DNA of 64,000 bases, taken from contig JAQUQW010000001.1 in assembly GCA_028716245.1 (NCBI GenBank), forward strand, positions 296,793-360,792, written 5' to 3'. Shown one piece after another: positions 6,466-63,498 of the stretch. Position numbers and translations under genes: made by a program. This stretch comes from Candidatus Omnitrophota bacterium. GTDB lineage: Bacteria; Omnitrophota; Gorgyraeia; Gygaellales; Profunditerraquicolaceae. The notes under the pieces are model-generated. The model made no database searches. It saw only the letters and a program-made list of their open reading frames with translations, and was not told the origin of the DNA. Each line of letters starts with the position of its first letter. Positions within the stretch are counted from its first letter, which is position 1.

Positions 6466-6494
6466 TTTTGGGGCTGTCCTTTTATTAATTAGAG

Positions 6495-9723: not shown

Positions 9724-10025
9724 GGAGGAAAGTCCGGGCTCCAGAGGATAACGTAACGGGTAACCCCCGTCTCTTAACGCAAGTTAAGACGGATTCGAGC
9801 CACAGAGACGAGTAGCAGCTAAGGCTGCGAGGTGAAACGCGGCAATCTCTACGTGGAGCAAAGCAGAATAGGAGATGAGCGCTGATCCGGCGCGTTCCGT
9901 ATTTGCGGGAAATAATCTCGGGTAAGCTGCTAAAGTTCCGGGAGAAATTCCGGGATTGAGAGGAATAGCCACTAATCGATGCGCAGATTCGCATCAAGAC
10001 AGAACCCGGCTTATTCTGCCTGCTT
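9690..10025 (+). ncRNA. rnpB: RNase P RNA (bacterial type A)
   Basis: Universally conserved GGAGGAAAGTCCGGGCTCC at 9724-9742 and ACAGAACCCGGCTTA at 9999-10013. P1 helix AGCAGGCAGAA (9691-9701) pairs with TTCTGCCTGCT (10014-10024). The 5' end overlaps the last 30 nt or so of rnhA. Confidence 0.8.
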
Positions 10026-10047
10026 AATTATTAAAGAGGAGGAAGTT

Positions 10048-10803: not shown

Positions 10804-11282
10804 TCATTGTCGGTATTGACCCGGCTTTGGCGATTACCGGTTACGGTGTTATTGAGTCTAAAGGGAATTCTTTAGCTTTGATTGAGGCAGGGGTAATCCA
10901 AACTTCGGCCAAAGAGGCTGCTCCAAAAAGATTGGACCGGATATACCGCGGTGTACTTAAATTGATCAATGATGTAAAAGCTGATTGCCTGGTGCTTGAA
11001 AAAATATATTCGCATTATAAGCATCCGGCAACCGCCTGTATCCTGGGCCAGGCCAGGGGAGTTATCTGTTTGGCGGCCTCAACCAAAAGGATACCTTTTT
11101 TTGAATATGCGGCTACGCGCGTAAAAAAAGCTATAGTCGGAAAAGGCCTGGCTTCTAAGGCCCAAGTGCAGAGAATGGTTACCCATACCTTGGGGCTAAA
11201 AACTTTACCGGCTTATATGGATATTACCGATGCCTTGGCGTTGGCTATCGCGCATAGTTATATTATAAAAAGTAAATTATGA
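10800..11282 (+). CDS. ruvC: Holliday junction resolvase
   Basis: MIIVGIDPALAITGYGVIE; yebC-ruvC-ruvA synteny. Confidence 0.9.
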   Translation: MIIVGIDPALAITGYGVIESKGNSLALIEAGVIQTSAKEAAPKRLDRIYRGVLKLINDVKADCLVLEKIYSHYKHPATACILGQARGVICLAASTKRIPFFEYAATRVKKAIVGKGLASKAQVQRMVTHTLGLKTLPAYMDITDALALAIAHSYIIKSKL

Positions 11283-37006: not shown

Positions 37007-38931
37007 TGCAAAAATTCAAAGTTACATTCTTACCGGATAATAAAACTGTTTCTGTCGATAAAGACTCAACCGTACTTTCGGCGGCAATCTCGGCAGGAGT
37101 CTATATCAATTCTACCTGCGGCGGAGATGGGATTTGCGGAAGGTGCAAAGTTGTCGTAAAAGGACAGGTTACCAGCCAGCCCAATGGGATAATTACTCCC
37201 GAGGAACGCAAGAATAATATCTATTTAGCCTGCCTGACAAATGTCCATGGAGACTTAGAGGTCCAGGTTCCCGATAGTTCACGGCTTAATTTTGATAAGC
37301 TTACTCCTGAAGAATTAGAGGAGCGTTTAAACGGGTTTTATTCAAAAGCAGAAGAGATCTCTCCGGTAAAAGCAAAATTTGAAGACCGGGTTTTTAAGCA
37401 TTCTCCATTTGCCACAAAATTATATCTTGAACTGCCTAAACCGACGATTAATGACAGTATCAGCGATCTGGAAAGGCTATACCGGGCCCTGAGGAATTTT
37501 GAAGAATTTCCCGTAATCCAGGCCGGCTTATTTAATATCCGCCAGCTGGGTGAATTATTGCGCGATTATGAATGGAAAGTTACCGTAACGCTGGGTAAAC
37601 GCAATAATACGGTTGAGATCGTGCTCATTGAGCCCGGCGATACAACGCAGAAGAACTTCGGGCTTTGTTTTGATATCGGCACAACTACAATTTCCGGCCA
37701 ACTGGTAAATCTAAATTCAAAAAAAATCCTGGGAACAAAAGCCGCTTATAATCAACAGGCGGCTTTCGGCAGCGATGTAATTACGCGCATAATTCACGCG
37801 GCAAAAAGCGATGGCTTGGAACAGTTGCATAATGCCGTTTGCGACACAATAAACCAGATTATCAAAGACCTGGTTTTAGAACACAAGGTGGATTTAAACA
37901 CGGTTAACTGCATTGTCTGCTCGGGGAACACTACAATGATACATCTGCTTTTAAATATGGATCCTTCCCATATCCACAGGGAACCGTATGTTCCGACGGC
38001 AAACTTCCTGCCGGTAGTGCGGGCCGCAGAAGCCGGAATAAATATTAACCCCAGAGGCCTGCTGGCTTGCGTTTCGGGGGTCTCTAGTTTCGTCGGCGGG
38101 GATACTACCGCCGGAGTTCTATCCAGCGGGTTATACCAAAAAGAAAAACCCTGCATATTAATTGATATTGGCACAAACGGGGAAATTGTTTTAGGTAATC
38201 AAGAATTCCTGGTTGCCTGCGCGGCATCCGCCGGCCCGGCTTTTGAAGGCAGCGGGGTCACCAGCGGGATGCGGGCAAGCAGCGGGGCGATCCAAAAAGT
38301 GCGCATCGATAGAAAAGATTTTAATGTTAAATATTCCGTGATCCAGGATAAAAAACCCAAGGGGATTTGCGGCTCGGGTTATATCGACCTGCTCAGTGAA
38401 ATGCTAGAGGCAAGGATAATTGATAAGAGCGGAAAAATCAAAGCCCAAAACCATCGGCGTATCCGCCAAACCGATCTTGGTTATGAATTTGTGGTTTGTT
38501 TTAAAGAAGAAACCGCTGCCGGCTCGGATATTGTGATTAACGAAGCCGACATTGAAAACCTTAAACGCTCTAAAGGAGCGATATATTCAGCCACCTCGAT
38601 TTTAGTTAAACATTTGGGTTTGGAATTTGCGGCAATCCATAAGTTTTATATTGCCGGAGGGTTTGGAACCTACCTGGACATTGAAAAAGCAATCAGGATA
38701 GGGTTATTACCGGATTTGGAACGCGCAAAGTTTGTTTTTATCGGGAACAGTTCCCTGGCAGGGGCAAGAGAGATACTTTTATCAAGCCAAGCGATGGAGA
38801 TGGGGGATAATCTTGCCTCGAAAATCACTTATTTTGAATTATCGGTTGAACCCGGATATATGGAGGAGTATAGCCAGGCTTTATTCTTTCCGCATACGGA
38901 TTTAACCAAATTCCCAACGGTGAAATTTTAA
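37006..38931 (+). CDS. corrinoid activation/regeneration protein (RACo; 2Fe-2S ferredoxin + ASKHA ATPase)
   Basis: N-terminal plant-type 2Fe-2S domain (CGGDGICGRCKV ... ACLT) followed by an ASKHA/DUF4445 ATPase domain (DIGTTTISGQLV, IDIGTNGEIV). About 640 aa, as in RACo. Confidence 0.75.
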   Translation: MQKFKVTFLPDNKTVSVDKDSTVLSAAISAGVYINSTCGGDGICGRCKVVVKGQVTSQPNGIITPEERKNNIYLACLTNVHGDLEVQVPDSSRLNFDKLTPEELEERLNGFYSKAEEISPVKAKFEDRVFKHSPFATKLYLELPKPTINDSISDLERLYRALRNFEEFPVIQAGLFNIRQLGELLRDYEWKVTVTLGKRNNTVEIVLIEPGDTTQKNFGLCFDIGTTTISGQLVNLNSKKILGTKAAYNQQAAFGSDVITRIIHAAKSDGLEQLHNAVCDTINQIIKDLVLEHKVDLNTVNCIVCSGNTTMIHLLLNMDPSHIHREPYVPTANFLPVVRAAEAGININPRGLLACVSGVSSFVGGDTTAGVLSSGLYQKEKPCILIDIGTNGEIVLGNQEFLVACAASAGPAFEGSGVTSGMRASSGAIQKVRIDRKDFNVKYSVIQDKKPKGICGSGYIDLLSEMLEARIIDKSGKIKAQNHRRIRQTDLGYEFVVCFKEETAAGSDIVINEADIENLKRSKGAIYSATSILVKHLGLEFAAIHKFYIAGGFGTYLDIEKAIRIGLLPDLERAKFVFIGNSSLAGAREILLSSQAMEMGDNLASKITYFELSVEPGYMEEYSQALFFPHTDLTKFPTVKF

Positions 38932-39684
38932 ATGGGTAAAATCATCGCGCTAGCCGGAAAAGGCGGGACCGGAAAAACCACGCTGAGCGCTTTAATTATC
39001 CGTTTGATTAAAGAAAAAAAATTGGGTTCGGTTTTAGCTATTGATGCTGACCCGAATAGTAATTTAGGGGAGGCGCTGGGGGTAAAATCCGAGGAGAGCA
39101 TCGGTAAAATACTTGATCTTATATGCACTGACCCGGATAAAGTTCCAACCGGTATGACCAAGGAGCGTTTTATTCAGCATCAAGTGCAATCGGCAATCCA
39201 GGAAGAGCAAGGTTTTGACATCTTAAGCATGGGTAAGCCGGAAGGCCCGGGTTGTTATTGTTACGTCAATAATGTCCTGCGCGGAGTAATCACCAAGCTG
39301 ATTCATGACTACGATTACATCGTAATCGATAATGAGGCCGGGTTAGAGCATTTGTCCCGGCGCACCACTCGCTTTGCCGACATACTCATTGTTGTTTCAG
39401 ATGCCTCCAGCGTCGGCTTAAAGTCGGCCAAAAGAATCATCGACTTAGTAAAGCAGCTGAAATTTGAAGTAAAAAAAAGTTTTCTTTTGATTAACCGTTT
39501 TAACAAAAACATCGATAATGAAAAAATCAAGGCAACCGGCCTGAATTATTTAGGCAATCTGCCCAATGATCTGGAAATCGAAAATTTAAGCCTTGAAGGA
39601 AAATCAATTTTTGAATTGAAATCAAACGCGCCGGTATTTAAGGCGCTTAATTTACTGGGAGAGCAAATATGGGAACGCAATTAG
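38932..39684 (+). CDS. cooC: CooC/AcsF-type nickel-insertion accessory ATPase (MinD/ParA superfamily)
   Basis: Deviant Walker A GKGGTGKTT and the CooC-like CxC motif region (GPGCYCYVNN). Confidence 0.75.
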   Translation: MGKIIALAGKGGTGKTTLSALIIRLIKEKKLGSVLAIDADPNSNLGEALGVKSEESIGKILDLICTDPDKVPTGMTKERFIQHQVQSAIQEEQGFDILSMGKPEGPGCYCYVNNVLRGVITKLIHDYDYIVIDNEAGLEHLSRRTTRFADILIVVSDASSVGLKSAKRIIDLVKQLKFEVKKSFLLINRFNKNIDNEKIKATGLNYLGNLPNDLEIENLSLEGKSIFELKSNAPVFKALNLLGEQIWERN

Positions 39685-40604
39685 TGCTCGAGAAATGGCC
39701 GGGAATTATCTCCACCGTAATCATCGGGGCCACCAAAGATGAAGGAGGTTCCCGGGCAAATACCGTAAAGATCGGCGGACAAAACAGTTTGCCTTTGTTA
39801 TTTAAAGAAGGGGATCTTCCCAATAAACCCAAAATCGCTTTTGAAATCTGGGACATTGCCCCGCAAGACTGGCAGGAGGAGTTAATTTCTGCCTACGGAA
39901 AAGCGGTAAATGATCCTTTTGCCTGGGCGGAAAAATGCGTCAATGAGTTTAAAGCGGAAATACTCTGCCTAAAATTGCAGGGAACGCATCCTGATTGCGG
40001 CAACAAAACTCCTCAGGAGTCAGCTAAATTCGTCTCGGCTTTATTAAATAAGGTCAAACTCCCTTTAATAATTATCGGAAGCGGCGACGATACCAAGGAT
40101 AACCTGGTTATGCCTGTAGTTTCAGAAGCGGCTAAGAAAGAACGCTGTTTGATTGGCTGCGCGGCACAGGATAATTATAAAACCTTAGTTGCCAGCGGAT
40201 TAGCCGACGGCCACAGCATTATTGCCGAAAGCCCCATCGATATCAATATTGCCAAACAATTGAATATATTGATTTCCGATATGGGATTAAGCTTAGAGCG
40301 CATCGTGATTAATCCGACTATCGGAGCATTGGGCTATGGCCTTGAATATGCCTACTCGATTATGGAACGGGCAAGATTGGCCGCTCTATCCGGCGATAAA
40401 ACCCTAGCTTCACCGTTTATTTGTTTTGTGGGGCAGGAGGCCTGGAGGACTAAAGAAGCCAAAGTCAGCCTGGAACAGGGAATTATGTGGGAGACAATTA
40501 CTGCCACCAGCCTCATTCAATCGGGAGCGGATCTTTTGGTTATGCGCCACCCCAAAGCAGTGCAGAAAGTGCACAATTTCATTGAAACATTATATCGAGG
40601 ATAA
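39669..40604 (+). CDS. acsD: corrinoid iron-sulfur protein small subunit (acetyl-CoA decarbonylase/synthase delta subunit)
   Basis: TIM-barrel AcsD-like sequence of about 311 aa, positioned between cooC and acsE as in acs operons. Confidence 0.7.
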   Translation: MGTQLVLEKWPGIISTVIIGATKDEGGSRANTVKIGGQNSLPLLFKEGDLPNKPKIAFEIWDIAPQDWQEELISAYGKAVNDPFAWAEKCVNEFKAEILCLKLQGTHPDCGNKTPQESAKFVSALLNKVKLPLIIIGSGDDTKDNLVMPVVSEAAKKERCLIGCAAQDNYKTLVASGLADGHSIIAESPIDINIAKQLNILISDMGLSLERIVINPTIGALGYGLEYAYSIMERARLAALSGDKTLASPFICFVGQEAWRTKEAKVSLEQGIMWETITATSLIQSGADLLVMRHPKAVQKVHNFIETLYRG

Positions 40605-40606
40605 GT

Positions 40607-41404
40607 ATGCTTGTTATTGGTGAACTGATTAATGGGATGTATCCGGAAATTGCTCTGGCAATTAAAGAGCGCGATAAGAAAATAGTGCAAAAATACGCGC
40701 TCCAACAGGTTGACTGCGGCGCCGATGCCCTCGATGTCAACTGCGGTCCGGCTTCGGCTAAACCATTATTGGATATGCCCTGGCTGGTTGAAATAATTCA
40801 AGAGGTAACCGATAAACCGCTGAGCCTTGATTCCAGTAAGCCTGAGGCCATTAAAGAAGGCTTAAAAGCCGCCAGGAATAAAACAATTATCAATTCTACC
40901 ACAGCGGATCCGGAAAAGCTGGACATTCTTGTTCCTTTAGCCAAACAGTATAATTCCAAATTAATCGGGATCACTATCAACTTAAAAGGAATCCCCCAAA
41001 ACAAAGACCAGCGCGTGGAATTAGCGGCAATAATCGTCGCCTATTGCCAAGAAAATGAATTCCCCATCGAAGATCTTTATTTAGACCCGATACTGTTGCC
41101 GATTAATGTCGCTCAGGGGCAAATGATTGATATTTTAGAATCTATCCGCGAATTCAAGATAATCTCCGAGCCAAGCCCCAAGACCATTCTGGGCTTAAGC
41201 AATGTTTCCCAGGGCACGCACACTCATAATACACATAGCCTGATCAACCGCACATTTTTAACAATGGCAGTTGCGTATGGCTTGGATTCTGCTATACTTA
41301 ATCCTGAAGATAAAGAGCTGATGGACAGCTTGATTACCGCAGAGCTTATTTTGAATAAAAATATTTACTGTAATTCGTATCTAGAGGCTTACAGAAAAAA
41401 GTGA
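40607..41404 (+). CDS. acsE: methyltetrahydrofolate:corrinoid iron-sulfur protein methyltransferase (pterin-binding, DHPS-like)
   Basis: Pterin-binding barrel (IGELINGM...DCGADALDVNCGP...LSLDSSKPEA...INSTT) of about 265 aa. Confidence 0.75.
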   Translation: MLVIGELINGMYPEIALAIKERDKKIVQKYALQQVDCGADALDVNCGPASAKPLLDMPWLVEIIQEVTDKPLSLDSSKPEAIKEGLKAARNKTIINSTTADPEKLDILVPLAKQYNSKLIGITINLKGIPQNKDQRVELAAIIVAYCQENEFPIEDLYLDPILLPINVAQGQMIDILESIREFKIISEPSPKTILGLSNVSQGTHTHNTHSLINRTFLTMAVAYGLDSAILNPEDKELMDSLITAELILNKNIYCNSYLEAYRKK

Positions 41405-46692: not shown

Positions 46693-47901
46693 ATGCGTAT
46701 TTTCCGGTTTACCGACCAAAACGAAGTAAGGAAGTCTATGCAGAATATCGGAGTTGATCCGTATGGTATCAAGATCATGCTGCCCAAGGCTCTTGCCTTT
46801 ACAATTCGCTTAAATGCCATAAACAATGTTACGGCTAATATCCTTAAGCAGGAGATGCTTTCTTTGGGAGGGGATGCGGCGGTTGCCAGAGGGTCGCTTA
46901 CCGGAAAAACTAAAAAAACCGATATTCTTCTTTTCGGCCAGCTCCGGCAGCTTAAATCCCTGGCGGATAAATTAAAATTCCAGCCTTTTGGCCTGCGTAA
47001 ACTTGGAGTTGAGCTGGATGAAAATATTGAAAATTACACCCGGGATAATTTTATTTTAGGATTAAGAGAACACACTTTGAATCTTAGCCAAAAAACCCAG
47101 ATTATGGGCATTATTAACTTAACTCCGGATTCATTTAGCGGGGATGGTTTATATAAGGCAAACCGCAAAGAACATCTCAAGCTGGTTTTAGAAAAAGCGC
47201 AAAAAATGTCCGCTGATGGGGCAGATATAATTGACCTTGGAGGACAATCCAGCCGTCCGGGCGCAAAAGCAATCAGCACTAAAGAAGAACTGCTGCGTAC
47301 TGCGCCCGCGGTAAAGCTATTGGCAAAAAAAATTACTACTCCTATTTCTATCGATACTACCAAGCCGGAGGTTGCCGAGGCTGCCTTAGAAGCCGGGGCG
47401 CAGATAATTAATGATATCTCGGGATTAAGAAATAAGCGCATGATTAAAGTAGCCGCCAAATATAAGGCTGCTGTAGTGATTATGCATATGCTTGGGTTAC
47501 CGGTAAATATGCAGAAAAAAATCGCCTACCATTCCTTAATTGATGACATTACCGCCTATTTAAAAACCGCGATTGAGTCTGCCTGCTCCGGTGGAATAAA
47601 TCCGGATAAAATCATTATCGATCCAGGGCTGGGATTTGGGAAAACCAAAGAACATAATCTTGCAATAATGCGGCATCTGGCGGATTTTAAAGTCTTAGGA
47701 AAACCTATCCTGATCGGGCCATCCCGAAAATCTTTTATCGGTAAAGTCTTAGGCACTGACGTTAAAAAAAGGACCGCCGGTTCACTGGCCGCCTCGGTAA
47801 TGGCAGCTCTAAACGGAGCAAATATACTCCGCGTGCATGATGTTAAAGAAACAAACCAATCCTTAAAAATTGTCGAGGCGATAAAAAATGCTGACGCATA
47901 A
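46693..47901 (+). CDS. folP: dihydropteroate synthase with about 120-aa N-terminal extension
   Basis: The C-terminal 280 aa carry IMGIINLTPDSFSGDG, DIGGQSSRPG and GPSRKSFIG. The N-terminal 120 aa are an unrecognised extra domain. Confidence 0.85.
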   Translation: MRIFRFTDQNEVRKSMQNIGVDPYGIKIMLPKALAFTIRLNAINNVTANILKQEMLSLGGDAAVARGSLTGKTKKTDILLFGQLRQLKSLADKLKFQPFGLRKLGVELDENIENYTRDNFILGLREHTLNLSQKTQIMGIINLTPDSFSGDGLYKANRKEHLKLVLEKAQKMSADGADIIDLGGQSSRPGAKAISTKEELLRTAPAVKLLAKKITTPISIDTTKPEVAEAALEAGAQIINDISGLRNKRMIKVAAKYKAAVVIMHMLGLPVNMQKKIAYHSLIDDITAYLKTAIESACSGGINPDKIIIDPGLGFGKTKEHNLAIMRHLADFKVLGKPILIGPSRKSFIGKVLGTDVKKRTAGSLAASVMAALNGANILRVHDVKETNQSLKIVEAIKNADA

Positions 47902-48646
47902 CCTGATTTTATACTGGAAACCGGTAGTTGAAATTTTAATCCTGTGGTTCTTTATTTACCACATCCTGCTTTTTTTCGTAGGGACACGGGCAATACAAGC
48001 TTTACGGGGAATAATCATACTGTTACTTGCTTTCTTAATTTTCCAAAAATTTGATTTTTTCGTATTAAATAGGTTATTCAAAGAACTCTTTGGCATATCG
48101 GTGATTGCGATCTTAATTATTTTTCATCCTGAGATCCGGCAAGGTTTAGCCTCCATAGGCAAAGGGCAGGTTTTCAAAACCAACCAGAAAGATGAGGGCA
48201 TCGACTTTATTATCAGCCAAATTACGCAGGCCTGTGAAAATTTAGCGCAAAATAAACTCGGCGCTCTGATTGCTATTGAAAAAAACGACTCCTTATCGGC
48301 ATATATCCAAAGCGGCGAGATCATCGACTCGCGCATTTGCGCCGATTTAATCGAAGCGATCTTTACCCCGAATAACCCGCTTCACGACGGCGCAATGATC
48401 ATCCAAAAAAGAAGGATCGCCGCCGCCGGATGTTTTTTCCCCCTTACGGCAAACCAGCAACTAAGCCGGATTTTTGGGACACGCCACCGCGCGGCCTTAG
48501 GTTTAAGCGAAGAGAATGACGCGGTATTAATTATTGTCTCCGAAGAAAGGCACGACATATCCATAATTTTCCGCAAGAAATTTTATAAGGATTTGGGCGG
48601 AAAACAACTGGAAGCAAAAATAAAGGAGTTGCTTTTAAATGAATAA
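47888..48646 (+). CDS. cdaA: diadenylate cyclase CdaA (DAC domain) with three N-terminal TM helices
   Basis: NPLHDGAMII and GTRHRAALG DAC motifs. Confidence 0.85.
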   Translation: MLTHNLILYWKPVVEILILWFFIYHILLFFVGTRAIQALRGIIILLLAFLIFQKFDFFVLNRLFKELFGISVIAILIIFHPEIRQGLASIGKGQVFKTNQKDEGIDFIISQITQACENLAQNKLGALIAIEKNDSLSAYIQSGEIIDSRICADLIEAIFTPNNPLHDGAMIIQKRRIAAAGCFFPLTANQQLSRIFGTRHRAALGLSEENDAVLIIVSEERHDISIIFRKKFYKDLGGKQLEAKIKELLLNE

Positions 48647-50900: not shown

Positions 50901-50964
50901 TAGTTCAGTGGTAGAACAATAGCCTTCCAAGCTATATATGGGGGTTCGATTCCCCTCTCCCGCT
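50894..50964 (+). tRNA. tRNA-Gly (anticodon UCC)
   Basis: Acceptor stem GCGGGAG/CTCCCGC, anticodon stem ATAGC/GCTAT with loop CTTCCAA, discriminator U. Confidence 0.85.
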
Positions 50965-50979
50965 AAAAAACCATCTATT

Positions 50980-52428
50980 ATGGATAGTGCTATAAAAGAG
51001 GTTCTGCCTAAATTAATTGAAGATGCCGACGTAATAGTGCTTTATTTAGACAACCAAGAAAATATTCTTCTCTGTAATAAAAAAGTCCGGGAATTAACCG
51101 GCCTCAAAGATACTGATATTATAGGCAAAAACTGGCTTAAGGTATTATTCAGGCATTCAGATAATAACATTAAGAGAGCTATGTTTAAAGCAGTAATGGA
51201 TGATTCTCTAACTTATAAAAGGCCAAAAGATTTTGAATGCCACATTTTAGATAATTCCGGTAAAAATCGCCTCATCTCCTGGAGTATTAACCCAATCTTG
51301 GACAAAGACAATAAAGTTGAAGCAAGCACGCTCTTTGGACAGGATATTACGGAAATAAAAGGAAGAGGGGCTGCGATAAAAAATATCGATGACTCCTTAA
51401 AAAATATCTTCTCCAGCATAAAAGAATATGCTTTATATGTGATTAATCTTGACGGGAAAATAACTTATGTCGGGATGGGATGCCTTGCCATGCTGGGTTG
51501 GGATAAGAAAGATATTATCTTTAAACATGCCAACATCCTGCATAATATTGAAGGAGAACTGCCTAATTTGGATTTCATCCTAAAACAGGTACGCTTATTG
51601 GGTAAGTACGAAACAGAAACTGAACTGGTTACTAAGGATGAAAAAATTATTCCGGTTATATTGACCGTCAACCAGTTTTTGGACCCTTCAGGTAAGCTTT
51701 CAGGCTTTATTTTTATCGCTAAGGACATGACCGAAAGAAAAAAACTGGAATACCAAATCTTCCAGGCTGAAAAGCTGGCGGCCCTGGGGCAGCTCTCCGC
51801 AGGGATGGCCCATGAGATCAATAACCCTCTTTTTGTTATTTCCGGCAGGTTGGAAATGCTCAAACAGGAAGAAGTCAATCAAAAGGTTAAAGATGCCCTT
51901 AGCTTAATCGGTTCTCAAACCGACCGTATCCGTAATCTCGTTGACAGGATCCTGAGGTTTTCCCGTAAATCAACCACAACTTTGGAACCAATTGACATCA
52001 ATGAGGCTATTGAAGCTGTCCTACCCTGGGTCCAATATAATAAATTGCCAAGCGCTGAAGTTGTCCTTGAGAAATCTTTTACAAAAAATATGCCTAAAAT
52101 CAAAGGAGACCTCCATCAGCTGCAAGAAGTTTTTCTGAATCTCCTGATTAACGCTTATCAATCAATGCCTAACGGAGGAAAAATTAAAATTATTACCAGT
52201 AAATTCGATGACCATTATGCCCAAATCCAGATTATCGATTCAGGGGTGGGAATCCCAGCGCATCATCTCAAAAATATTTTCATGCCTTTTTTTACAACCA
52301 AAAAAGAAGGCTTAGGCTTAGGGTTATCCATTTGCCATAATATTATTAAAAACCATAACGGTTCAATTGAGTTAACGAGTAAAATTAATCAAGGGGCGTC
52401 TTTTACCATTAAACTGCCTTTTATTTAA
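50980..52428 (+). CDS. PAS-domain sensor histidine kinase
   Basis: Two PAS-like regions, the HisKA H-box (GMAHEINNPLFVISGRLEML), and HATPase_c (DSGVGIP...GLGLGLSICHNII). The ATG at 50980 was chosen because the ORF-track start lies inside tRNA-Gly. Confidence 0.8.
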   Translation: MDSAIKEVLPKLIEDADVIVLYLDNQENILLCNKKVRELTGLKDTDIIGKNWLKVLFRHSDNNIKRAMFKAVMDDSLTYKRPKDFECHILDNSGKNRLISWSINPILDKDNKVEASTLFGQDITEIKGRGAAIKNIDDSLKNIFSSIKEYALYVINLDGKITYVGMGCLAMLGWDKKDIIFKHANILHNIEGELPNLDFILKQVRLLGKYETETELVTKDEKIIPVILTVNQFLDPSGKLSGFIFIAKDMTERKKLEYQIFQAEKLAALGQLSAGMAHEINNPLFVISGRLEMLKQEEVNQKVKDALSLIGSQTDRIRNLVDRILRFSRKSTTTLEPIDINEAIEAVLPWVQYNKLPSAEVVLEKSFTKNMPKIKGDLHQLQEVFLNLLINAYQSMPNGGKIKIITSKFDDHYAQIQIIDSGVGIPAHHLKNIFMPFFTTKKEGLGLGLSICHNIIKNHNGSIELTSKINQGASFTIKLPFI

Positions 52429-52440
52429 AAGGAGGTTGGC

Positions 52441-52827
52441 ATGCTCTATAAAATCCTGGTGGTTGATGACGAAGCACCGGTAAGAGAACTATTTGTAGAT
52501 TTATTTAAAAAAGAGGATTGCCAATCTGTCGCCTGCGCAACCGGAGAAGAAGCTTTGGAAATACTTAAAAAAGAAACTTTCGATGTCGTGTTGCTGGATA
52601 TCAAGCTTCCCGGGATGAGCGGCCTGGAGGTACTTAAAAATATCAGGGAGACTCATGTGGACCTTCCGGTGGTTATGATCACGGGGTTTGGGTTCGATGA
52701 GGAGCTGATCGCTAAAACCAAACAATTTGGCTGTGCCGGATATATCGGTAAGAATATGCCTGTGTCCCAAATTATAGTTACTTTCAAACAATTCGTTAAA
52801 ACCGCCAAAGAAAAAGGCTGCCTCTAA
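52441..52827 (+). CDS. single-domain response regulator (CheY-like receiver)
   Basis: ILVVDDE...VLLDIKLPGMSGLEVL has the receiver Asp and no output domain. Confidence 0.8.
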   Translation: MLYKILVVDDEAPVRELFVDLFKKEDCQSVACATGEEALEILKKETFDVVLLDIKLPGMSGLEVLKNIRETHVDLPVVMITGFGFDEELIAKTKQFGCAGYIGKNMPVSQIIVTFKQFVKTAKEKGCL

Positions 52828-54584: not shown

Positions 54585-54661
54585 CGGGGCGTGGCTCAGC
54601 TTGGTAGAGCGCTTGAATGGGGTTCAAGAGGTCACAGGTTCAAGTCCTGTCGCCCCGACCA
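54585..54661 (+). tRNA. tRNA-Pro (anticodon GGG), CCA encoded
   Basis: C1-G72 acceptor stem (CGGGGCG/CGCCCCG), anticodon stem CTTGA/TCAAG with loop ATGGGGT. Confidence 0.8.
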
Positions 54662-56088: not shown

Positions 56089-56448
56089 ATGACAAAGAAA
56101 TATGAAGGCGCGGAAAGAAGAAAATTTCCGCGGGTAGAGGGAAGGTTCATTGTTTCATATAGGATCATCCCGACTAATGATAACGCCGATATAACCCAAA
56201 CTAAGAACTTAAGCCTGGGCGGAATGCTCCTGACCACCAATTGCCAGTTTCCGGTCGGAACAAACCTGGCCCTTGAAATCCGCCTGCCTTTTGATCCGGA
56301 CCCGATTATGATTATCGCCAATGTCCTGGAGTCAAAAGAGATAACCAAGAATATAATCTATGATACCCGGCTGGTTTTTTTGGCAGTGGATGAAAAACAC
56401 CGTAAAGTAATCGCCGAAACCGTCGGCTATTATCTTAAGAAAGGGTAA
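56089..56448 (+). CDS. PilZ-domain c-di-GMP-binding protein
   Basis: RRKFPR (RxxxR) and NLSLGG (D/NxSxGG) c-di-GMP-binding motifs. AGGGAGG RBS. Confidence 0.7.
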   Translation: MTKKYEGAERRKFPRVEGRFIVSYRIIPTNDNADITQTKNLSLGGMLLTTNCQFPVGTNLALEIRLPFDPDPIMIIANVLESKEITKNIIYDTRLVFLAVDEKHRKVIAETVGYYLKKG

Positions 56449-56451
56449 TTT

Positions 56452-57747
56452 ATGAAGAAAATTAATCTTGGCCTGATTGGTTTCGGCAATATCGGCTGCG
56501 GAGTCGTAAAAATCCTGCAGCAAAGAAGATTATTTTTAACTCAAAAAATAGGGGTTGAAATCGTAATTAAAAAAATATGCGATAAGGATATTGCCAGAAA
56601 AAGAGATGTCCGGGTAGATAAAAATTTACTTACCCGTGATGCCAATGAAATAATCAATGATCCCCAGATTGATATCGTAGTCGAATTAATGGGCGGAATC
56701 AACCCGGCAAAAGAATTTATTCTGGCGGCTTTAAAAAAGGGCAAACATATAGTAACCGCCAATAAAGCCCTGCTTGCCGAGTGCGGAAACGAGTTGTTCA
56801 GGGAAGCTGCCGAACGGGGGAAAAATATTTATTTTGAGGCTTCCGTAGGCGCGGGAATCCCCATTATAAAATCAATAAAGGAAGGGCTGGTAGCTAATAA
56901 ATTCAGCTGCATTTTTGGTATTGTCAACGGCACGTCTAATTATGTGCTGACGCAGATGTCTAAAGAAGGCTGTTCTTTTGCCAACGCCATTGGCGCGGCT
57001 AAAGCTAAAGGTTTTGCCGAAAAGGATCCTACCCTGGATATTGAAGGGATTGACTCGGCGCATAAACTGGTATTACTTACTTATCTGGCCTATGGCAGGA
57101 TTGTCAGCGTAAAAGATATTTTTATCGAAGGAATCTCCCAGGTCTCCGCTGCCGATATCGCTTACGCCAAAGAGTTGGGGTACGCGATAAAATTATTGGC
57201 GATTGCTAAAAAGAAGGTTGATGAATTGGAAGTGCGGGTGCATCCGACTTTTTTACCGGTAAACCATTTACTTTCATCTGTGGACGGAGTTTTTAACGCC
57301 ATTTATGTTTCCAGTGACCTGGCAGGAAACCTTATGTTTTATGGGCCCGGAGCAGGGCAATTGCCCGCGGCTTCGGCGGTTGTCTCGGATATCGTTGATC
57401 TTACCCAGGATATCAAAGCGGGCCTGTTCCGGCCGACTTTAAATTCCATTGAAGACAACTCGATTAAAAGCTTGCGTAAGATAGATGAATTTGAAAATAA
57501 ATATTATATCCGCATTGCGGCTGTAGATAAACCGGGGGTATTGGCTAAGGTATCGGGGATCCTGGCAAAATTTGGCATCAGTATCGCTTCAGTAACTCAA
57601 AAAGAAAAATTAAGGGCTCAGGTTGTACCGGTAGTCATGGTTACGCATGAAGTAAAAGAAAAAAATCTGCGTAACGCTTTAAAGATGATCGATCAATTAA
57701 AGGATATCAAAGAAAAATCCATTGCCATAAGAATTGAGGACGTTTAA
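56452..57747 (+). CDS. hom: homoserine dehydrogenase with C-terminal ACT domain
   Basis: [16 protein letters not shown](P)-binding motif, the catalytic region, and C-terminal ACT ([28 protein letters not shown]). Confidence 0.9.
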
Positions 57748-58828
57748 AGTGTGTGAACAAGGCTATAAAGGGATAATCCAAAAGTACAAACGTTTCTTAC
57801 CGGTCAATGACCAGACACCGGTAATTACGCTAAACGAAGGGAATACTCCCTTAATTTATGCCGGTTATTTAAGTAAATTGGCCGGTGATAATATTGAAGT
57901 TTACTTAAAATACGAAGGGCTTAATCCTACCGGTTCATTCAAAGACAGGGGGATGACCCTGGCCATATCCAAGGCCTGCCAGGAGAAGGCTAGCGCGGTT
58001 ATGTGCGCTTCCACCGGAAATACATCCGCATCCGCGGCTGCCTATGCGGCACGGGCAGGAATAAAATGCATTGTACTTATTCCCAGCGGTGCGATTGCGC
58101 TGGGAAAACTTAGCCAAGCGTTAATTCATGGGGCAAAAGTCCTGGCGATTAAAGGTAATTTTGATGCGGCGCTGGATCTGGTAAAAGAAATTACTAAAAA
58201 ATACCCCATCGTATTGGTAAACTCTTTGAACCCTTACCGCATCGAAGGGCAAAAAACCGCCAGCTTTGAAATATGCGACTATTTAGGCGATGCGCCGGAT
58301 TTCCAAATCATGCCGGTAGGAAATGCGGGTAATATTACTGCCTACTGGAAAGGATACAAAGAATATAAAACACAAAACTTAAGCAAAAAGCTTCCGGTTA
58401 TGCTAGGCTTCCAGGCAGAAGGAGCCGCGCCCATTGTCAGAGGCAAACCAATCAAGAATCCGCAGACTATTGCTACTGCCATTCGTATCGGAAACCCGGC
58501 AAGCTGGAAAAGCGCGGTCGAGGCGCGTGATGAATCCGCGGGGTTAATTGACCTGGTTTCGGATGCCCAAATTCTTGAGGCTTATAGAATACTGGCTGAA
58601 AAAGAAGGGGTATTCGCTGAACCGGCTTCGGCAGCTTCGGTCGCCGGGCTTTTAAAATTAATCAATAACGGATATTTTAAAAAAACCGGCCTGAATAATA
58701 AATACCGGATCGTCTGCGTATTAACCGGGCACGGCTTAAAAGACCCTGAGCGGGCGATTAAAACAATTAAGCATCCGAAGGTTATCCGGGCGGATTTAAA
58801 AACAATAATTAAAGAAATTGGCTACTAA
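57734..58828 (+). CDS. thrC: threonine synthase
   Basis: PLP-lysine motif [11 protein letters not shown] and the GNAGN glycine loop. Follows hom. Confidence 0.85.
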
Positions 58829-59450
58829 AAAGATTCTTATTACTGCCGGGCCTAGCTGGGTGGCCATTGACAAAATCAGGGTAATCAGCAATATTGCTTC
58901 CGGTGAAACCGGATTTATCCTGGCAGAAAAATTTAAAAAACTTGGAGCCAAAGTTACTTTGTTATTGGGGCCGGGTTACTTTTGCGGGTCTCAAACCGGA
59001 ATAAAAATAATCCGTTTTAAGTATTTTTCGCAGCTGGCGCGACTTTTGAAAAACGAATTAAAAAAAGGAAAATACGCCGCAGTTATCCATGCGGCGGCAG
59101 TTGCGGATTATACGCCCAAAAAGGTAATCCGGCATAAAGTGAGTTCGCATCGGGCTAACTGGAGGATTGATCTGGTCCCAACTAAAAAACTGATTAATGA
59201 CTTGAAAAATTACGGAAAAGGATTATTTACCGTGGGTTTTAAGTTTGAACCGGATAAAGATGATGCCGGGCTTATTGAAAAAGGCAAAAAATTGCTTAAA
59301 CAGGCAAGGCTGGATCTAGTAGTTGCCAATTCCAATAAAAATGCGGTTTACCGCGCTTTTATACTTGATAGTAGAAATAAATACGGCCCTTTCCCAAGTA
59401 AAATAAAAATGGCTGCTTATTTATCCAGGCTGGTGGAGAAAAAAATATGA
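58818..59450 (+). CDS. coaB: stand-alone phosphopantothenate--cysteine ligase (CoaB-domain) homologue
   Basis: [47 protein letters not shown] and AAAVADY align with the Dfp C-terminal CoaB domain. Confidence 0.7.
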
Positions 59451-60661
59451 CAAAATTCATTGTACTGGTTGGAGACGGAATGGCGGATTATCCTATACAG
59501 GAGCTGGGAATGCGCACGCCTTTAGAGGCAGCGCGCATTCCCAATATGGACTTTATTGCCAAGAACGGATGCCTCGGTCAGGCCAAAACTATCCCGGATA
59601 AAATGACCCCGGCATCAGATGTAGCTAATCTTTCGATATTGGGATATGACCCCAAAAAATACTATACGGGAAGAGGGCCGCTGGAAGCGGCAAACCTGGG
59701 CATTGAATTAGAAGAAGATGATGTTGCTTTCCGCTGCAATTTGATTACGGCAACCGGCGATACCCTGCTTGATTACAGCGCCGGGCATATCAAATCGACG
59801 GAAGCTGAAAAATTGATTAAATTTCTCGATCAAAAAATAGGAACCAATAAAATGCGTTTTTATCCCGGAATAAGTTACCGCCATCTCCTTTTAGCCAAAG
59901 GCGCGGCCCAATTAAAACTCCATAATTTAAAATGCCTGCCCCCGCATGATATTGCCGGCCAAAGTATCAGCAAAAACCTGCCCAAAGGCGATAACGCGGA
60001 TTTAATCATTAAACTGATGCAGGATTCCCGGGAGCTTCTGGATAACCATGAAATTAATCATGTGCGCCTGGACTTAAAAGAGAACCCGGCAAATATGATC
60101 TGGCTCTGGGGGCAGGGCAGAAAGCCGGATATGCCTAAATTTATGGATAAATTCGGCCTATCCGGAAGCGTGATTTCAGCGGTAGACCTGATTAAAGGTT
60201 TAGGGCGCATCCTGGGCTTAGAGGTAATCAATGTCCCGGGAGCAACCGGTTATTATGATACCGATTATCTGGCTAAAGCAAAAGCGGCGATTAAATCCCT
60301 GAAGAAAAACGATTTTATTTTTGTGCATGTGGAGGCCCCTGATGAAGCCGGGCATAACGGTGATCTACGGGAAAAACTTACCGCGATTGAGAGGTTTGAC
60401 CAATTAGTGGTCGGCCCTCTTTTAGAATATTGTAAAACCAAGGATGATTTCCGGATAATGGTCTTACCGGACCACGCTACTCCGGTTGCCCTAAAAACGC
60501 ACACTGCCGAAATTATTCCCTTTGCGATTTACGGCAAAGATATACCCGCAAAGGATTTTCTTAATTACAGCGAAAAAGAAGCGCAGAAATCCGAATTATA
60601 TTTTGAAAATGGATATCAACTTATGGAATATTTTATTCAAGGGAGAATAAGCAATGCATAA
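59447..60661 (+). CDS. cofactor-independent phosphoglycerate mutase (archaeal ApgM-type) family protein; by context the probable non-canonical homoserine kinase ThrB2
   Basis: Alkaline-phosphatase-superfamily ApgM motifs (FIVLVGDGMADYP ... HVEAPDEAGHNGD ... VLPDHATP). Embedded between thrC and lysC, with no canonical thrB present. Confidence 0.75.
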   Translation: MTKFIVLVGDGMADYPIQELGMRTPLEAARIPNMDFIAKNGCLGQAKTIPDKMTPASDVANLSILGYDPKKYYTGRGPLEAANLGIELEEDDVAFRCNLITATGDTLLDYSAGHIKSTEAEKLIKFLDQKIGTNKMRFYPGISYRHLLLAKGAAQLKLHNLKCLPPHDIAGQSISKNLPKGDNADLIIKLMQDSRELLDNHEINHVRLDLKENPANMIWLWGQGRKPDMPKFMDKFGLSGSVISAVDLIKGLGRILGLEVINVPGATGYYDTDYLAKAKAAIKSLKKNDFIFVHVEAPDEAGHNGDLREKLTAIERFDQLVVGPLLEYCKTKDDFRIMVLPDHATPVALKTHTAEIIPFAIYGKDIPAKDFLNYSEKEAQKSELYFENGYQLMEYFIQGRISNA

Positions 60662-61874
60662 GGGTTTAGTTGTTCAGAAATACGGCGGATCATCGGTTGC
60701 CAACGTCCAACGCATTCAAAAAGTCGCCCAAAGGGTGGTCGGTTACAGCAAAAAAGGTTATCAACTGGTAATTGTTGTTTCAGCCTTGGGAGATACTACC
60801 GATGAATTAATTGCATTGGCGGATAAAATCAATCCCAATCCTTCGCAGCGGGAAATGGATATGTTGTTATCAACCGGAGAGCAGATCTCTGTGGCTCTTC
60901 TAGCCATGGCAATTCATAAATTAGGAGCCCGGGCGATTTCGTTTACCGGTTCGCAAGTCGGGATCATTACCGACACCAGCCACACCCAGGCCAGGATTAT
61001 CAAAATAAACGGGAATAAAATTAAAGAAGAGCTAAGAAAAGGCAATATCGTTATTGTCGCCGGTTTCCAGGGGGTAACTTTAAATCAAGATATTACTACT
61101 TTGGGCAGGGGAGGATCGGATTTAACTGCCGTAGCCCTGGCTAAAGAACTCAAAGCCGATTCTTGCGAAATTTACACGGATGTCGAAGGAATTTATACTA
61201 CCGATCCGCGGATTGAACCCCGGGCTAGAAAAATAAAAGAGATTACTTATGATGAGATGCTGGAAATGGCCTCACTCGGGGCCCAGGTAATGCAGGCGCG
61301 GTCCATCGAAGTAGCAAAAAAATTTGATGTGCCCTTGCATGTGCGTTCATCATTTAGCGATAAAAGCGGAACGATGATCATTAAGGAGGTAAAAAAGATG
61401 GAAGATGTGGTGGTCAACGGCGTAACTCTAAATAAAAATGAGGCAAAAATCACTCTTTGCGGGGTTCTGGATAAGCCGGGGGTTGCGGTAAAATTATTCA
61501 AGAACCTGGCAGACGCGGGGGTAAGCGTCGATATGATCGTCCAAAATGTAAGCCATACCCGCTCAACGGATATATCATTTACGATTGCCAAATCCGAAAG
61601 CGCCAAAGCCGCTAAAATCACTAAAATGGTAGCCAGGAAAATCAGAGCAGGAGAGGTCCTGCTGGATGAAGATATTGCCCAGGTTTCTATCGTCGGAGTA
61701 GGTATGAAATCGCACCGTGGTGTCGCGGCTAAAATGTTCGGGATACTGGCAGATAATAAAATTAACATTGAGATGATCTCTACTTCCGACATCAGCATAT
61801 CCTGTATTATCAAAAAAAAGAACGCCGAGATAGCGGTAAGAAAATTACATCAGGAGTTCGGGTTAAATAAATAG
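60654..61874 (+). CDS. lysC: aspartate kinase with two ACT domains
   Basis: VVQKYGGSSV, the TTLGRGGSD region, and C-terminal tandem ACT domains. Confidence 0.9.
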   Translation: MHKGLVVQKYGGSSVANVQRIQKVAQRVVGYSKKGYQLVIVVSALGDTTDELIALADKINPNPSQREMDMLLSTGEQISVALLAMAIHKLGARAISFTGSQVGIITDTSHTQARIIKINGNKIKEELRKGNIVIVAGFQGVTLNQDITTLGRGGSDLTAVALAKELKADSCEIYTDVEGIYTTDPRIEPRARKIKEITYDEMLEMASLGAQVMQARSIEVAKKFDVPLHVRSSFSDKSGTMIIKEVKKMEDVVVNGVTLNKNEAKITLCGVLDKPGVAVKLFKNLADAGVSVDMIVQNVSHTRSTDISFTIAKSESAKAAKITKMVARKIRAGEVLLDEDIAQVSIVGVGMKSHRGVAAKMFGILADNKINIEMISTSDISISCIIKKKNAEIAVRKLHQEFGLNK

Positions 61875-61880
61875 GTAAGG

Positions 61881-61930
61881 CACCCCGCGCTTAGCGGAAT
61901 TGTGCGGGTGTTGTCTCCGTAGACAAGGGG
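61881..61930 (+). promoter_or_regulatory. structured leader element copy D (minimal unit) immediately upstream of cimA/leuA-like gene
   Basis: CACCCCGCGC-TTAGCGGAATTGTG-CGGGTG, then hairpin TTGTCT-CCGT-AGACAA, then GGGG and the ATG at 61936. The 3' hairpin co-varies with copies A and B. Confidence 0.4.
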
Positions 61931-61935
61931 TAACC

Positions 61936-63498
61936 ATGCTTAAGGTAAAATTATACGATACCACGCTTCGTGACGGCTCACAGGCCGAAGGAATATCTTA
62001 TTCGGTAATGGATAAGGTCCGGATTGCCGAAGAACTGGATAAATTCGGTATTCATTTCATTGAAGGAGGCTGGCCCGGTTCAAACCCCAAAGACCGGGAA
62101 TTCTTTGAAAAGATAAGCAAGGCCAAACTTAAAAATTCCAAGATTGCCGCTTTTAGCATGACCCGCAGGCCAAATATCAAAGCTTCGCAGGATAGCAACA
62201 TCGGTGCCCTTTTAAAATCAGAAGCCCAAGTAATTACTATCGTCGGTAAAACCTGGGATTTTCATGTGGTTGAAGTTTTAAAAACTACGCTGGATGAAAA
62301 CTTGGAGATGATCAAAGATACCATCAGCTTTTTGATTAAAAAGGGTTTTGTCGTTTTTTATGACGCGGAGCATTTTTTCGACGCTTACCAGGCAAACAAA
62401 GATTACGCTTTAAAAACCTTGATTGCCGCCCAAGACGCAGGGGCTTCTGCCATCTGCCTTTGCGATACTAACGGCGGTTCCTTGCCAAACCAGATAACAA
62501 CTACAATCAGTGAAATCAAGCATAGGATTAAAGTTGATTTGGGTATCCACTGCCATAATGACGCCGGCGTTGCCATTGCCAATTCTTTAGCGGCCATCGA
62601 AGCCGGAGCAACCATCGTTCAAGGAACGATAAACGGCTACGGAGAACGCTGCGGAAATGCCGATCTGATCCCGATCATCGCGAATTTAAAGCTTAAACTA
62701 AAAAATAACTGCATTCCTGACCTGCAGCTAAAACAATTAACCCGCCTTTCGCATTTTGTCAGCGAAATCAGTAATATGCGCGTAAAAAATGAACAGCCTT
62801 TTGTCGGGGATTCAGCCTTCGCGCATAAAGGCGGGATGCATATTAACGCCATAATGAAAAATCCCTTAACTTATGAACATATCGACCCGTCCTTGGTCGG
62901 AAACCACCGCAGGATCCTGGTTTCCGAACTGGGCGGCAAAACCGGTATTTTGTTAAGGGCAAAAGATTTGAATTATGATTTAAGCAAAGGGGACCCGCAA
63001 ACCAAAAAAATCCTGGAATTAGTCCAAGACTTAGAGCATAAAGGATTCCAGTTTGAGGCTGCCGAAGCGTCCTTCCAGATATTGATGCAGAAGCATTTGA
63101 AAAAATTTAAGGGTTTCTTTGAACTTGAAGGATTTAAAGTAGTCATTGAAAAACGCCAAGATAAAAAGATCACATCGGAAGCGATTATAAAATTAAAGGT
63201 CAACGGAATCAAGGAACACACTGCTGCCGAAGGCGATGGCCCGGTAAACGCATTAGACAATGCCCTGCGCAAAGCGCTTAAAGACTTTTATCCGGCTTTG
63301 GCCAAAATGCACTTATCCGATTTTAAGGTGCGCGTTTTGGATGAAAAGGCCGGCACCGCGGCAAAAGTGCGGGTTTTAATCCAATCGCAGGATGAAAAAG
63401 ACACCTGGAACACCATCGGTGTCCATGAAAACATAATTGAAGCCAGCTGGCAGGCCTTAGTCGACAGCGTTGAATATAAACTTTTAAAAGATCAATAA
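61936..63498 (+). CDS. cimA: LeuA-family alpha-ketoacid C-acetyltransferase, most likely (R)-citramalate synthase
   Basis: [23 protein letters not shown]-like barrel and [12 protein letters not shown], with a C-terminal LeuA-dimer regulatory domain. Its length (about 520 aa) and its place in the Thr/Ile neighbourhood favour CimA over LeuA. ATG at 61936. Confidence 0.75.

Follow-up and report, generated by a model that had tools for sequence, protein, structure and literature searches.

Which enzyme phosphorylates homoserine in an operon that lacks a recognizable homoserine kinase, and what is a ligase of coenzyme A (CoA) synthesis doing in the same operon? Both questions are raised by a threonine cluster of a Candidatus Omnitrophota bacterium, in which a stand-alone CoaB-like protein and a homologue of ApgM-type phosphoglycerate mutase (PGM) are encoded between thrC and lysC. 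We analyzed the cluster within a window of 64 kb, which is the whole stretch of DNA under study, and compared it with loci from across the phylum. In our reading, the ApgM-like protein acts as HomK in the threonine branch, and the CoaB-like protein is the housekeeping CoaB, relocated after fission of coaBC; we assign the two parts together a probability of roughly 0.78.

Organization and conservation of the cluster

The order hom, thrC, coaB-like, apgM-like, lysC and the coordinates proposed in a sequence-only reading of this DNA were confirmed: all five open reading frames lie on the plus strand, and their families were assigned by profile search (Table 1). The overlaps proposed there were borne out, with one caveat. 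The coaB gene starts with TTG within the final thrC codons, coaB and homK share an ATGA at their junction, and homK and lysC overlap by 8 nt. The caveat is that thrC may begin at an in-frame GTG (57749), 2 nt past the hom stop. With this start the length of ThrC would fit that of its relatives (355-360 aa), and the hom/thrC overlap would be lost while the tight packing is kept. Pfam scans and a motif scan detected no GHMP kinase in the cluster or in the whole window, which bears out the earlier remark that a canonical GHMP-type ThrB is missing.

Table 1. Genes of the conserved block, with positions in the window and the profile evidence for each
Gene and product	Position	Strand	Evidence and remarks
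PilZ-domain protein gene	56089..56448	+	PF07238 at 4.4e-09; directly 5' of hom; first gene of the conserved block
hom, homoserine dehydrogenase with C-terminal ACT	56452..57747	+	PF00742, PF03447, PF01842; NF004976 524 bits (cut-off 205)
thrC, threonine synthase	57734..58828 (start may be GTG 57749)	+	TIGR00260 334 bits (cut-off 167)
coaB, stand-alone, 210 aa, 4'-phosphopantothenate--cysteine ligase domain only	58818..59450	+	PF04127 only, 1.9e-38
homK (ThrB2), ApgM-like predicted homoserine phosphotransferase in ThrB's place	59447..60661	+	TIGR02535 556 bits (cut-off 446)
lysC, monofunctional aspartate kinase with two ACT domains	60654..61874	+	NF005155 592 bits (cut-off 346); PF00696, ACT_9
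cimA, citramalate synthase (threonine-independent isoleucine route)	61900..63498	+	TIGR00977 757 bits (cut-off 450)

We surveyed species-representative Omnitrophota loci, taking the best 80 of at least 537 CoaB relatives. Within this set, thrC stood directly 5' of the CoaB-like gene in 77 loci and homK directly 3' of it in 59, so the arrangement is not due to chance; homK was kept in the thr cluster in the 67 loci where it was visible. The thrC-coaB-homK position, with its coupled start and stop codons, persisted down to about 40% identity. Positional conservation of this degree is a sign of functional linkage in many systems. The PilZ gene was found 5' of hom in most Omnitrophota loci long enough to tell, and cimA was the conserved final gene of the block, followed by valS in relatives. 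We conclude that PilZ-hom-thrC-coaB-homK-lysC-cimA is a conserved housekeeping string of the Omnitrophota. The genes coaB and homK are not always neighbours: some relatives have three unrelated genes between them, one for LemA and two of unknown function, which argues against an obligatory pairing.

The ApgM-like protein as a probable replacement for homoserine kinase

The ApgM-like protein, with the domains PF10143/PF01676, scored 556.2 bits against TIGR02535 (cut-off 446.3) over the full length of the model. It also exceeded the cut-offs of NF003242 (571.9 vs 426) and TIGR00306 (536 vs 320), two models that do not discriminate between HomK and PGM. The catalytic serine and the six metal ligands are intact (D10, S57, D299, H303, D342, H343, H352); they are invariant in 64 HomK orthologues, and the same residues are found in the archaeal ApgM structures 2ZKT and 3IDD. 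The protein lacks the lysine at the PGM specificity position. In its place is Glu296, which aligns with the Lys of 2ZKT (K302) and of 3IDD and is Glu in all 64 orthologues. A Glu at this position instead of Lys has been proposed as the switch between HomK and PGM specificity, as E299 in BT2402 (bioRxiv 10.1101/2024.10.14.618325). We mapped the residue via the PDB homologues and took its equivalence to E299 from the spacing to the DH metal motif, 46 vs 47 residues.

Known members of the HomK/ThrB2 family, BT2402 of Bacteroides thetaiotaomicron and DET_RS08350 of Dehalococcoides mccartyi, complement E. coli thrB, and one family member that rescues thrB is classed as PGM by TIGRFAMs (bioRxiv 10.1101/2024.10.14.618325). 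The Omnitrophota protein resembles them in being an ApgM/alkaline-phosphatase-type metalloenzyme with the catalytic Ser, the metal ligands and the Glu, and in being encoded with hom and thrC. It differs in that coaB lies between thrC and homK, in that its activity is a predicted one, and in its host, a phylum that is not named in the sources consulted. It shares the fold and the metal-binding residues of archaeal ApgM (TIGR00306; E = 4e-64 to 2ZKT, full length), but has Glu296 where ApgM has a conserved Lys, three positions ahead of the metal-binding Asp, and is found in a threonine rather than a glycolysis context.

We weighed whether the protein might instead be a true cofactor-independent PGM, with an unrecognized kinase elsewhere phosphorylating homoserine. 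The scores against NF003242 and TIGR00306, archaeal ApgM as the closest solved structures and the absence of any other PGM from the window would fit this, although the last point is uninformative about the genome. This explanation is nevertheless very improbable in view of Glu296 in every orthologue, the TIGR02535 score, the hom-thrC-lysC context in nearly every sampled Omnitrophota genome and the rescue of E. coli thrB mutants by related proteins, including one classed as PGM. These results support the proposal of the sequence-only reading that the ApgM-family protein is a HomK/ThrB2 that would replace homoserine kinase. Since the family has already been described and complementation evidence exists, the assignment follows established knowledge and is not a discovery.

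The threonine branch would thus run from LysC through aspartate-semialdehyde dehydrogenase, encoded elsewhere, to Hom, HomK and ThrC. As a metal-dependent enzyme of the alkaline-phosphatase/ApgM fold, HomK would presumably pass through a phospho-Ser57 intermediate and transfer the phosphoryl group to homoserine at its hydroxyl, and Glu296 would recognize the amino group. The phosphate donor is probably not ATP; HomK has been argued to be a phosphotransferase with a non-ATP donor rather than a strict kinase (bioRxiv 10.1101/2024.10.14.618325).

Fold, residues and selection of the CoaB-like protein

The 210-aa protein matched PF04127 (DFP) with 132.6 bits (cut-off 22) as its sole domain. The N-terminal flavoprotein domain (PF02441) of bifunctional CoaBC (Dfp, TIGR00521) is absent. 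Its AlphaFold model (pLDDT 86.5) reached a TM of 0.85 to E. coli phosphopantothenoylcysteine synthetase (PPCS; 1U7Z), and in a fold search all 50 of the matches listed were PPCS structures, with 0.85 as the best TM. The residues R21, N25, A93-A94-V95, D97 and K107 are invariant in 79 thr-type orthologues. R21, N25, A94, D97 and K107 are equivalent to R206, N210, A276, D279 and K289 of E. coli CoaB, for which Kupke in 2002 reportedly described roles covering both half-reactions. In Mycobacterium smegmatis, R207, N211 and D281 and a K-X-K-K loop are active-site residues of CoaB, and the K-X-K-K motif is conserved 'with few exceptions' (PMC7794376). The dN/dS of 0.12-0.15 indicates purifying selection, and coaB evolves 2-3 times faster than its neighbour genes.

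Some features set the protein apart from fused CoaBC. The triphosphate-binding loop reads K-V-S-S instead of K-X-K-K, with two of its three lysines substituted, and the flap for 4'-phosphopantothenate counts 11 residues against 18, about 7 fewer. The scores stayed under the NCBIfam equivalog cut-offs of TIGR00521 (118 vs 219.7), NF005231 (79.8 vs 265) and TIGR02114 (62.7 vs 217.2); the shortfall for TIGR00521 is expected, because the protein is half of a two-domain model. K-x-x-S was present in 91 of 91 stand-alone Omnitrophota CoaBs. The substitutions specific to its clade, K-x-S-S, D309K, A328K and W at 199, are common to five stand-alone CoaBs whose genes overlap or abut coaC, so these substitutions are not specific to the threonine context. 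As coaC-adjacent CoaBs and the stand-alone CoaB of Streptococcus pneumoniae (2GK4) also have K-I-S-S, we treated the loop as a variant and not as a reason for exclusion.

Relative to the CoaB domain of CoaBC/Dfp (E. coli 1U7Z, M. smegmatis 6TGV), the protein thus retains the Rossmann-like CoaB fold and the residues for acyl-cytidylate formation and conversion, but differs in its loop and flap, in lacking a CoaC domain and in not being encoded at gmk-rpoZ. The stand-alone CoaBs of Streptococcus and Enterococcus (TIGR02114) and eukaryotic PPCS are likewise separate polypeptides with coaC as a gene of its own, and 2GK4 shares the K-x-S-S and G-F-K signatures. In overall sequence, however, the protein is closer to CoaBC-type domains (5INT 2e-13 vs 2GK4 2e-10); it also scores far under the TIGR02114 cut-off, and its gene is unlinked to coaC and lies within an amino-acid operon. 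In a neighbor-joining tree, the stand-alone Omnitrophota CoaBs formed one clade, with the rpoZ-linked split CoaBs as the next branch outward.

Separate coaC loci and the origin of the arrangement

A stand-alone CoaC of 179 aa is abundant in Omnitrophota (4583 matches), with its His, PAMN and LACGxxGxG motifs intact. Among 80 coaC loci, 50 had gmk-rpoZ-coaC without CoaB within up to 10 kb on each side, 10 had an adjacent split coaB and 20 had a fused coaBC beside gmk; split or fused coaBC at the gmk-rpoZ site belonged to more distant relatives. Conversely, 77 of the 80 CoaB loci (the same top-80 set of at least 537 as above) were embedded in the thr cluster without CoaC nearby, and no CoaC-like ORF was found in the window. 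Comparing the accessions of both locus sets gave no genome or MAG with both a thr-embedded coaB and a lone coaC, and we therefore infer the pairing from the complementary distributions. According to PMC10066038, the CoA pathway is present in over 75% of the species genomes of Omnitrophota.

The fold, the catalytic residues, the purifying selection, the signatures shared with coaC-adjacent CoaBs and the loss of coaB from gmk-rpoZ-coaC together suggest that the protein is most likely the housekeeping CTP-dependent 4'-phosphopantothenate--cysteine ligase of CoA synthesis, with no step in the threonine branch. The simplest reading is fission of coaBC followed by relocation: an ancestral fused coaBC at gmk-rpoZ would have split, coaC would have remained, and coaB would have moved to its place behind thrC and ahead of homK; there, the overlap of its start and stop codons with theirs may have retained it.

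This evidence runs against the suggestion of the sequence-only reading that a ligase had been recruited for a different substrate, a housekeeping copy being what that reading had itself named as a refutation, although its remark that the location is unexpected was fair, and the location proved to be conserved across the phylum. A neofunctionalized ligase would have as its substrate some other carboxylate or amine of the Thr/Lys pathway or its surroundings, with the true CoaB elsewhere or absent. The conserved and translationally coupled position, the altered loop and flap, the faster evolution and the low NCBIfam scores could be read in this way. However, the substitutions recur in coaC-adjacent CoaBs and the loop in 2GK4, the residues for both half-reactions are invariant, and no locus surveyed held a second CoaB. 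Moreover, a lone coaC with intact motifs requires a CoaB, and only one CoaB family was found in those lineages; the threonine pathway requires no extra ligase, and coaB and homK are split in some relatives. We regard a new substrate as distinctly unlikely.

Two CoaB paralogues might also coexist; a coaB-coaC pair would then lie elsewhere, and the copy in the thr cluster would be a redundant or specialized duplicate. Some Omnitrophota-labelled MAGs carry a coaB-coaC-rmuC pair, and a weaker second copy could be missed, because the species scan stopped at the 80 best relatives out of 537 or more. Such a duplicate is nonetheless unlikely: the tree places the coaB-coaC type as sister to the thr type, zero genomes occur in both sets, the abundant CoaC of the phylum is the rpoZ-linked one without an adjacent CoaB, and the complete chromosome CP070807.1 has one CoaB locus. 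It is highly doubtful that the conserved thrC-coaB-homK order reflects a functional link and not hitch-hiking, for example with the CoaB-like protein, whose triphosphate loop is altered and whose flap is short, supplying or regenerating the phosphoryl donor of HomK, or having a second aspartate-family activity beside CoA synthesis.

With the protein read as a relocated housekeeping CoaB, a single locus offers an evolutionary series from fused coaBC through split coaC and coaB to coaC alone. The ligase half, now in an unrelated operon, has lost some of the loop for which channelling of its product to CoaC has been proposed. It is a tidy natural case of gene fission and relocation and not a new kind of system. 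The names given in the style of public records are misleading for both proteins: HomK would appear as 'cofactor-independent phosphoglycerate mutase', and the ligase-only CoaB is entered as 'phosphopantothenoylcysteine decarboxylase'. Automated reconstructions that rely on these names could wrongly score Omnitrophota as auxotrophic for threonine or as having a broken CoA pathway; the host dependence of this phylum is under debate.

Gene cluster and its predicted homoserine phosphotransferase

A six-frame ORF list reproduced exactly the coordinates and order of hom, thrC, a CoaB-like gene, an ApgM-like gene and lysC given by the earlier sequence-only reading, and their families were confirmed with Pfam and NCBIfam. 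According to the junction sequence, the TTG start of coaB falls within the final thrC codons; coaB and the ApgM-like gene share an ATGA overlap, and the latter gene overlaps lysC by 8 nt. thrC may alternatively start at an in-frame GTG (57749), 2 nt past the hom stop, which would suit the ThrC length of relatives (355-360 aa). No riboswitch or leader was found in the cluster with Rfam. Between 52 and 64 kb, the numbers of promoter-like sites (31 vs 24±5) and terminator-like sites (16 vs 16±3) did not differ from those in shuffled sequence, and the scans were thus uninformative on operon boundaries.

Features of the window and of related loci
Sequence	Feature	Positions	Remark
Window	Second-messenger/signalling genes	6495-8318, 47888-48646, 50938-52827	
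Window	ORF, 909 aa	21170-23899 (+)	convergent with the next ORF
Window	ORF, 1066 aa	23968-27168 (-)	
Window	Wood-Ljungdahl corrinoid protein cluster	35675-41404	
Window	tRNA gene	54585-54658	
Window	ORF, 450 aa	54696-56048	hydrophobic N-terminus; between tRNA gene and PilZ gene
Window	PilZ-domain gene	56089-56448	precedes hom cluster
Window	hom	56452-57747	Pfam, NCBIfam
Window	thrC	57734-58828	NCBIfam
Window	CoaB-like ORF, 210 aa	58818-59450	Pfam
Window	ApgM-like ORF (homK), 404 aa	59447-60661	Pfam, NCBIfam
Window	lysC	60654-61874	Pfam, NCBIfam
Window	Citramalate synthase gene (cimA)	61900-63498	next after lysC
L001	coaB-homK insert	8639-10853	
L002	coaB-homK insert	8633-10898	
L004	coaB-homK insert	8636-10665	
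L085	CoaC protein P0121	10973-11539	LASGDEGEG
L091	CoaC protein P0141	5001-5537	LASGEVGEG
L103/L104	LAGLIDADG homing-endonuclease gene and 199-aa endonuclease/HTH-like ORF	5710-7379	between coaC and thrS

The ApgM-like protein scored 556 against the 'proposed homoserine kinase' model TIGR02535 (trusted cut-off, 446) and also exceeded the cut-off of two phosphoglycerate-mutase models; since both kinds of model were passed, HMM scores alone are not decisive. Two members of this family, BT2402 of B. thetaiotaomicron and the divergent DET_RS08350 of D. mccartyi, rescue E. coli thrB::kan, and the authors renamed the family HomK, identified a Glu as the proposed specificity residue (E299 in BT2402; Lys in true mutases) and argued for a phosphate donor other than ATP, possibly phosphoserine (bioRxiv 10.1101/2024.10.14.618325). 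The window protein retains Ser57 as the catalytic residue, together with the metal ligands D10, D299, H303, D342, H343 and H352. Glu296, three residues ahead of the metal-binding Asp299, aligns with the Lys of 2ZKT and 3IDD, two solved structures of archaeal ApgM that carry a mutase annotation; its equivalence to E299 of BT2402 is based on this Lys/Glu contrast and on the spacing to the DH metal motif. Ser57, the metal ligands and Glu296 are invariant across 64 distinct Omnitrophota orthologues. Neither a GHMP kinase, whose absence had been claimed earlier, nor a second mutase was found within the 64-kb window, a remark that applies to the window and not to the whole genome. These sequence features indicate that the proposed ThrB2/HomK identity is correct, for a family that is already known and experimentally backed in other members. 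The BT2402 metal ligands are listed as D274, H278 and H325 vs D346 and H347 (bioRxiv 10.1101/2024.10.14.618325, Appendix 3), and the numbering of the first three departs from the D..H..DH..H order of the window HomK and 2ZKT.

The PilZ gene (c-di-GMP receptor type) ends 3 nt upstream of hom, and PilZ is kept there in most Omnitrophota loci (L001-L084) long enough to show that spot, often preceded by a second PilZ gene. Signalling genes are abundant in the window, which also encodes GGDEF-HD and DAC (c-di-AMP synthase) proteins, a PAS histidine kinase and a stand-alone receiver. The 450-aa ORF had no Pfam or NCBIfam match; the closest relative, L006, lacks it, and L001 carries an integrase/primase element at the same position, which suggests that the tRNA gene marks a tRNA-linked integration hot spot. 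The 909-aa and 1066-aa ORFs, which lie in the middle of housekeeping genes that are otherwise well annotated, had no Pfam match at E <= 1e-5. The Wood-Ljungdahl cluster comprises CdhD/AcsC-like, RACo reductive activator, CooC-like ATPase, second CdhD-like and pterin-binding methyltransferase genes, and fits with the acetogenic Omnitrophota lineages of PMC10066038.

Identity of the CoaB-like protein

The CoaB-like protein matched only PF04127 (DFP/CoaB), without a flavoprotein domain. Its AlphaFold model was confident (pLDDT 86.5, pTM 0.85) and superposed on E. coli phosphopantothenoylcysteine synthetase (1U7Z) with a TM of 0.85, and all 50 matches listed in a fold search were PPCS structures. 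Across 79 thr-embedded CoaB orthologues, the residues that correspond to R206, N210, A275-V277, D279 and K289 in E. coli numbering are invariant. In the M. smegmatis enzyme, the active site includes R207, N211, D281 and a K-X-K-K loop (PMC7794376). The window loop reads K-V-S-S, retaining only the first Lys, and the flap above the 4'-phosphopantothenate site has 11 residues, whereas that of fused CoaBC has 18. K-I-S-S is likewise present at that loop in 2GK4, a stand-alone protein of S. pneumoniae.

The sequence-only reading had suggested that this protein might be a ligase recruited for a different substrate, and its position within the thr cluster is in keeping with that idea. The loop and flap deviations are not thr-specific, because in other MAGs labelled Omnitrophota the stand-alone CoaBs directly next to coaC have the K-x-x-S and other clade substitutions in common with the thr-type, and a shortened flap (14 residues) as well. 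Beyond position, the recruitment idea found no positive support: the fold is that of CoaB, the residues are invariant, and the gene is under purifying selection, with a dN/dS of 0.15 for the window coaB vs its closest relative (0.03-0.08 for cluster neighbours). We conclude that the window coaB most likely encodes the housekeeping ligase, as its predicted activity, in a position that is unusual yet typical of the phylum.

The protein is 100% identical to NCBI MDD5476961.1, encoded on a 649-kb contig, and the window thus derives from a Candidatus Omnitrophota MAG. Like its relatives, MDD5476961.1 is named 'phosphopantothenoylcysteine decarboxylase', an activity that belongs to the CoaC half, which it lacks; most records of the actual decarboxylase of Omnitrophota read simply 'flavoprotein' or 'hypothetical protein'.

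Locations of coaB and coaC in Omnitrophota

We scanned one genome per GTDB species for coaB, and the best 80 loci (identity 86% down to 39%) were all from Omnitrophota MAGs, some auto-labelled 'Planctomycetales'. thrC lies immediately upstream of coaB in 77 of the 80, and homK follows immediately in 59, after an insert in 8 and past the contig end in 10. Exceptions are the complete chromosome CP070807.1 (L074) and L078, where coaB is apart from the thr genes, and L085, where a stand-alone coaC comes next after coaB. The conserved string is wider (thyA-like, gpsA, PilZ, hom, thrC, coaB, homK, lysC, cimA, valS) and extends upstream to pdxJ-acpS-nnrD, so that the cluster is a mixed housekeeping block rather than an operon dedicated to one pathway. 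Among the 67 species loci with homK visible, 7 carry an insert of ~2.2 kb between coaB and homK, with three unrelated genes for a 240-aa and a 250-315-aa protein of unknown function and for LemA. The window does not have this insert.

Neither the window nor the thr-type loci gave a CoaC match, first by BLAST with an E. coli Dfp sequence as the probe and then with family HMMs. The L085 CoaC as a probe revealed stand-alone Omnitrophota CoaCs, in some lineages in the order coaB, coaC, rmuC. A larger family (4583 matches; 179 aa) retains the active-site His, PAMNxNM and LACGxxGxG. The Cys of this last motif, the substrate clamp, corresponds to C158, a catalytic residue of E. coli Dfp; it is Ser in P0121 and P0141, both encoded in loci of the coaB-coaC-rmuC type, and is retained in the remaining aligned CoaCs of that type (P0147, P0166, P0213) and in the rpoZ-linked family.

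The gmk-rpoZ region is the classic neighbourhood of bacterial coaBC. In L103 and L104, a coaC of the 179-aa type follows gmk-rpoZ, with CoaB absent nearby; the 199-aa ORF downstream of coaC in L104 was rejected as a hidden CoaB for lack of an HMM match and resembles a homing endonuclease or an HTH protein. A metagenome scan yielded 80 coaC loci, which we classified by arrangement, with identities measured to the CoaC-family protein P0240. Fifty have gmk-rpoZ-coaC alone, with CoaB absent from the locus, many of these loci covering 10 kb to either side (about 58-76%); 10 have an adjoining separate coaB (about 53-59%); and 20 have a fused coaBC, some 400 aa long, at gmk-(rpoZ) (about 53-59%; rpoZ probe match in 7 of 20). 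No thr-type coaB and rpoZ-linked coaC came from the same MAG or contig among the 10 CoaB and 10 CoaC accessions compared; as 120 of the 4583 CoaC matches were listed, this result carries no weight against their co-occurrence. In a neighbour-joining tree without support values, which is a rough guide only, stand-alone Omnitrophota CoaBs formed one clade, with rpoZ-linked split CoaBs as the next branch and fused domains furthest.

The simplest account would be fission and relocation. An ancestral coaBC at gmk-rpoZ would have split, coaC remaining there; in the main lineages of Omnitrophota, coaB would have come to lie directly behind thrC, and in others it would have moved jointly with coaC to a new location. 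Overlaps between start and stop codons would have held coaB after thrC since. We infer the pairing of coaB and coaC in one genome: a lone coaC with intact catalytic residues requires a CoaB, and no CoaB family other than the thr-type was found in those lineages. Loss of a proposed CoaB-to-CoaC channelling loop would agree with the shortened flap. The CoA pathway and the pathways for all 20 amino acids are reported to be encoded in more than 75% of Omnitrophota species genomes (PMC10066038). The analysis yielded, as by-products, a pattern of coaBC fission and relocation and the recognition that public names of HomK and CoaB proteins are misleading.
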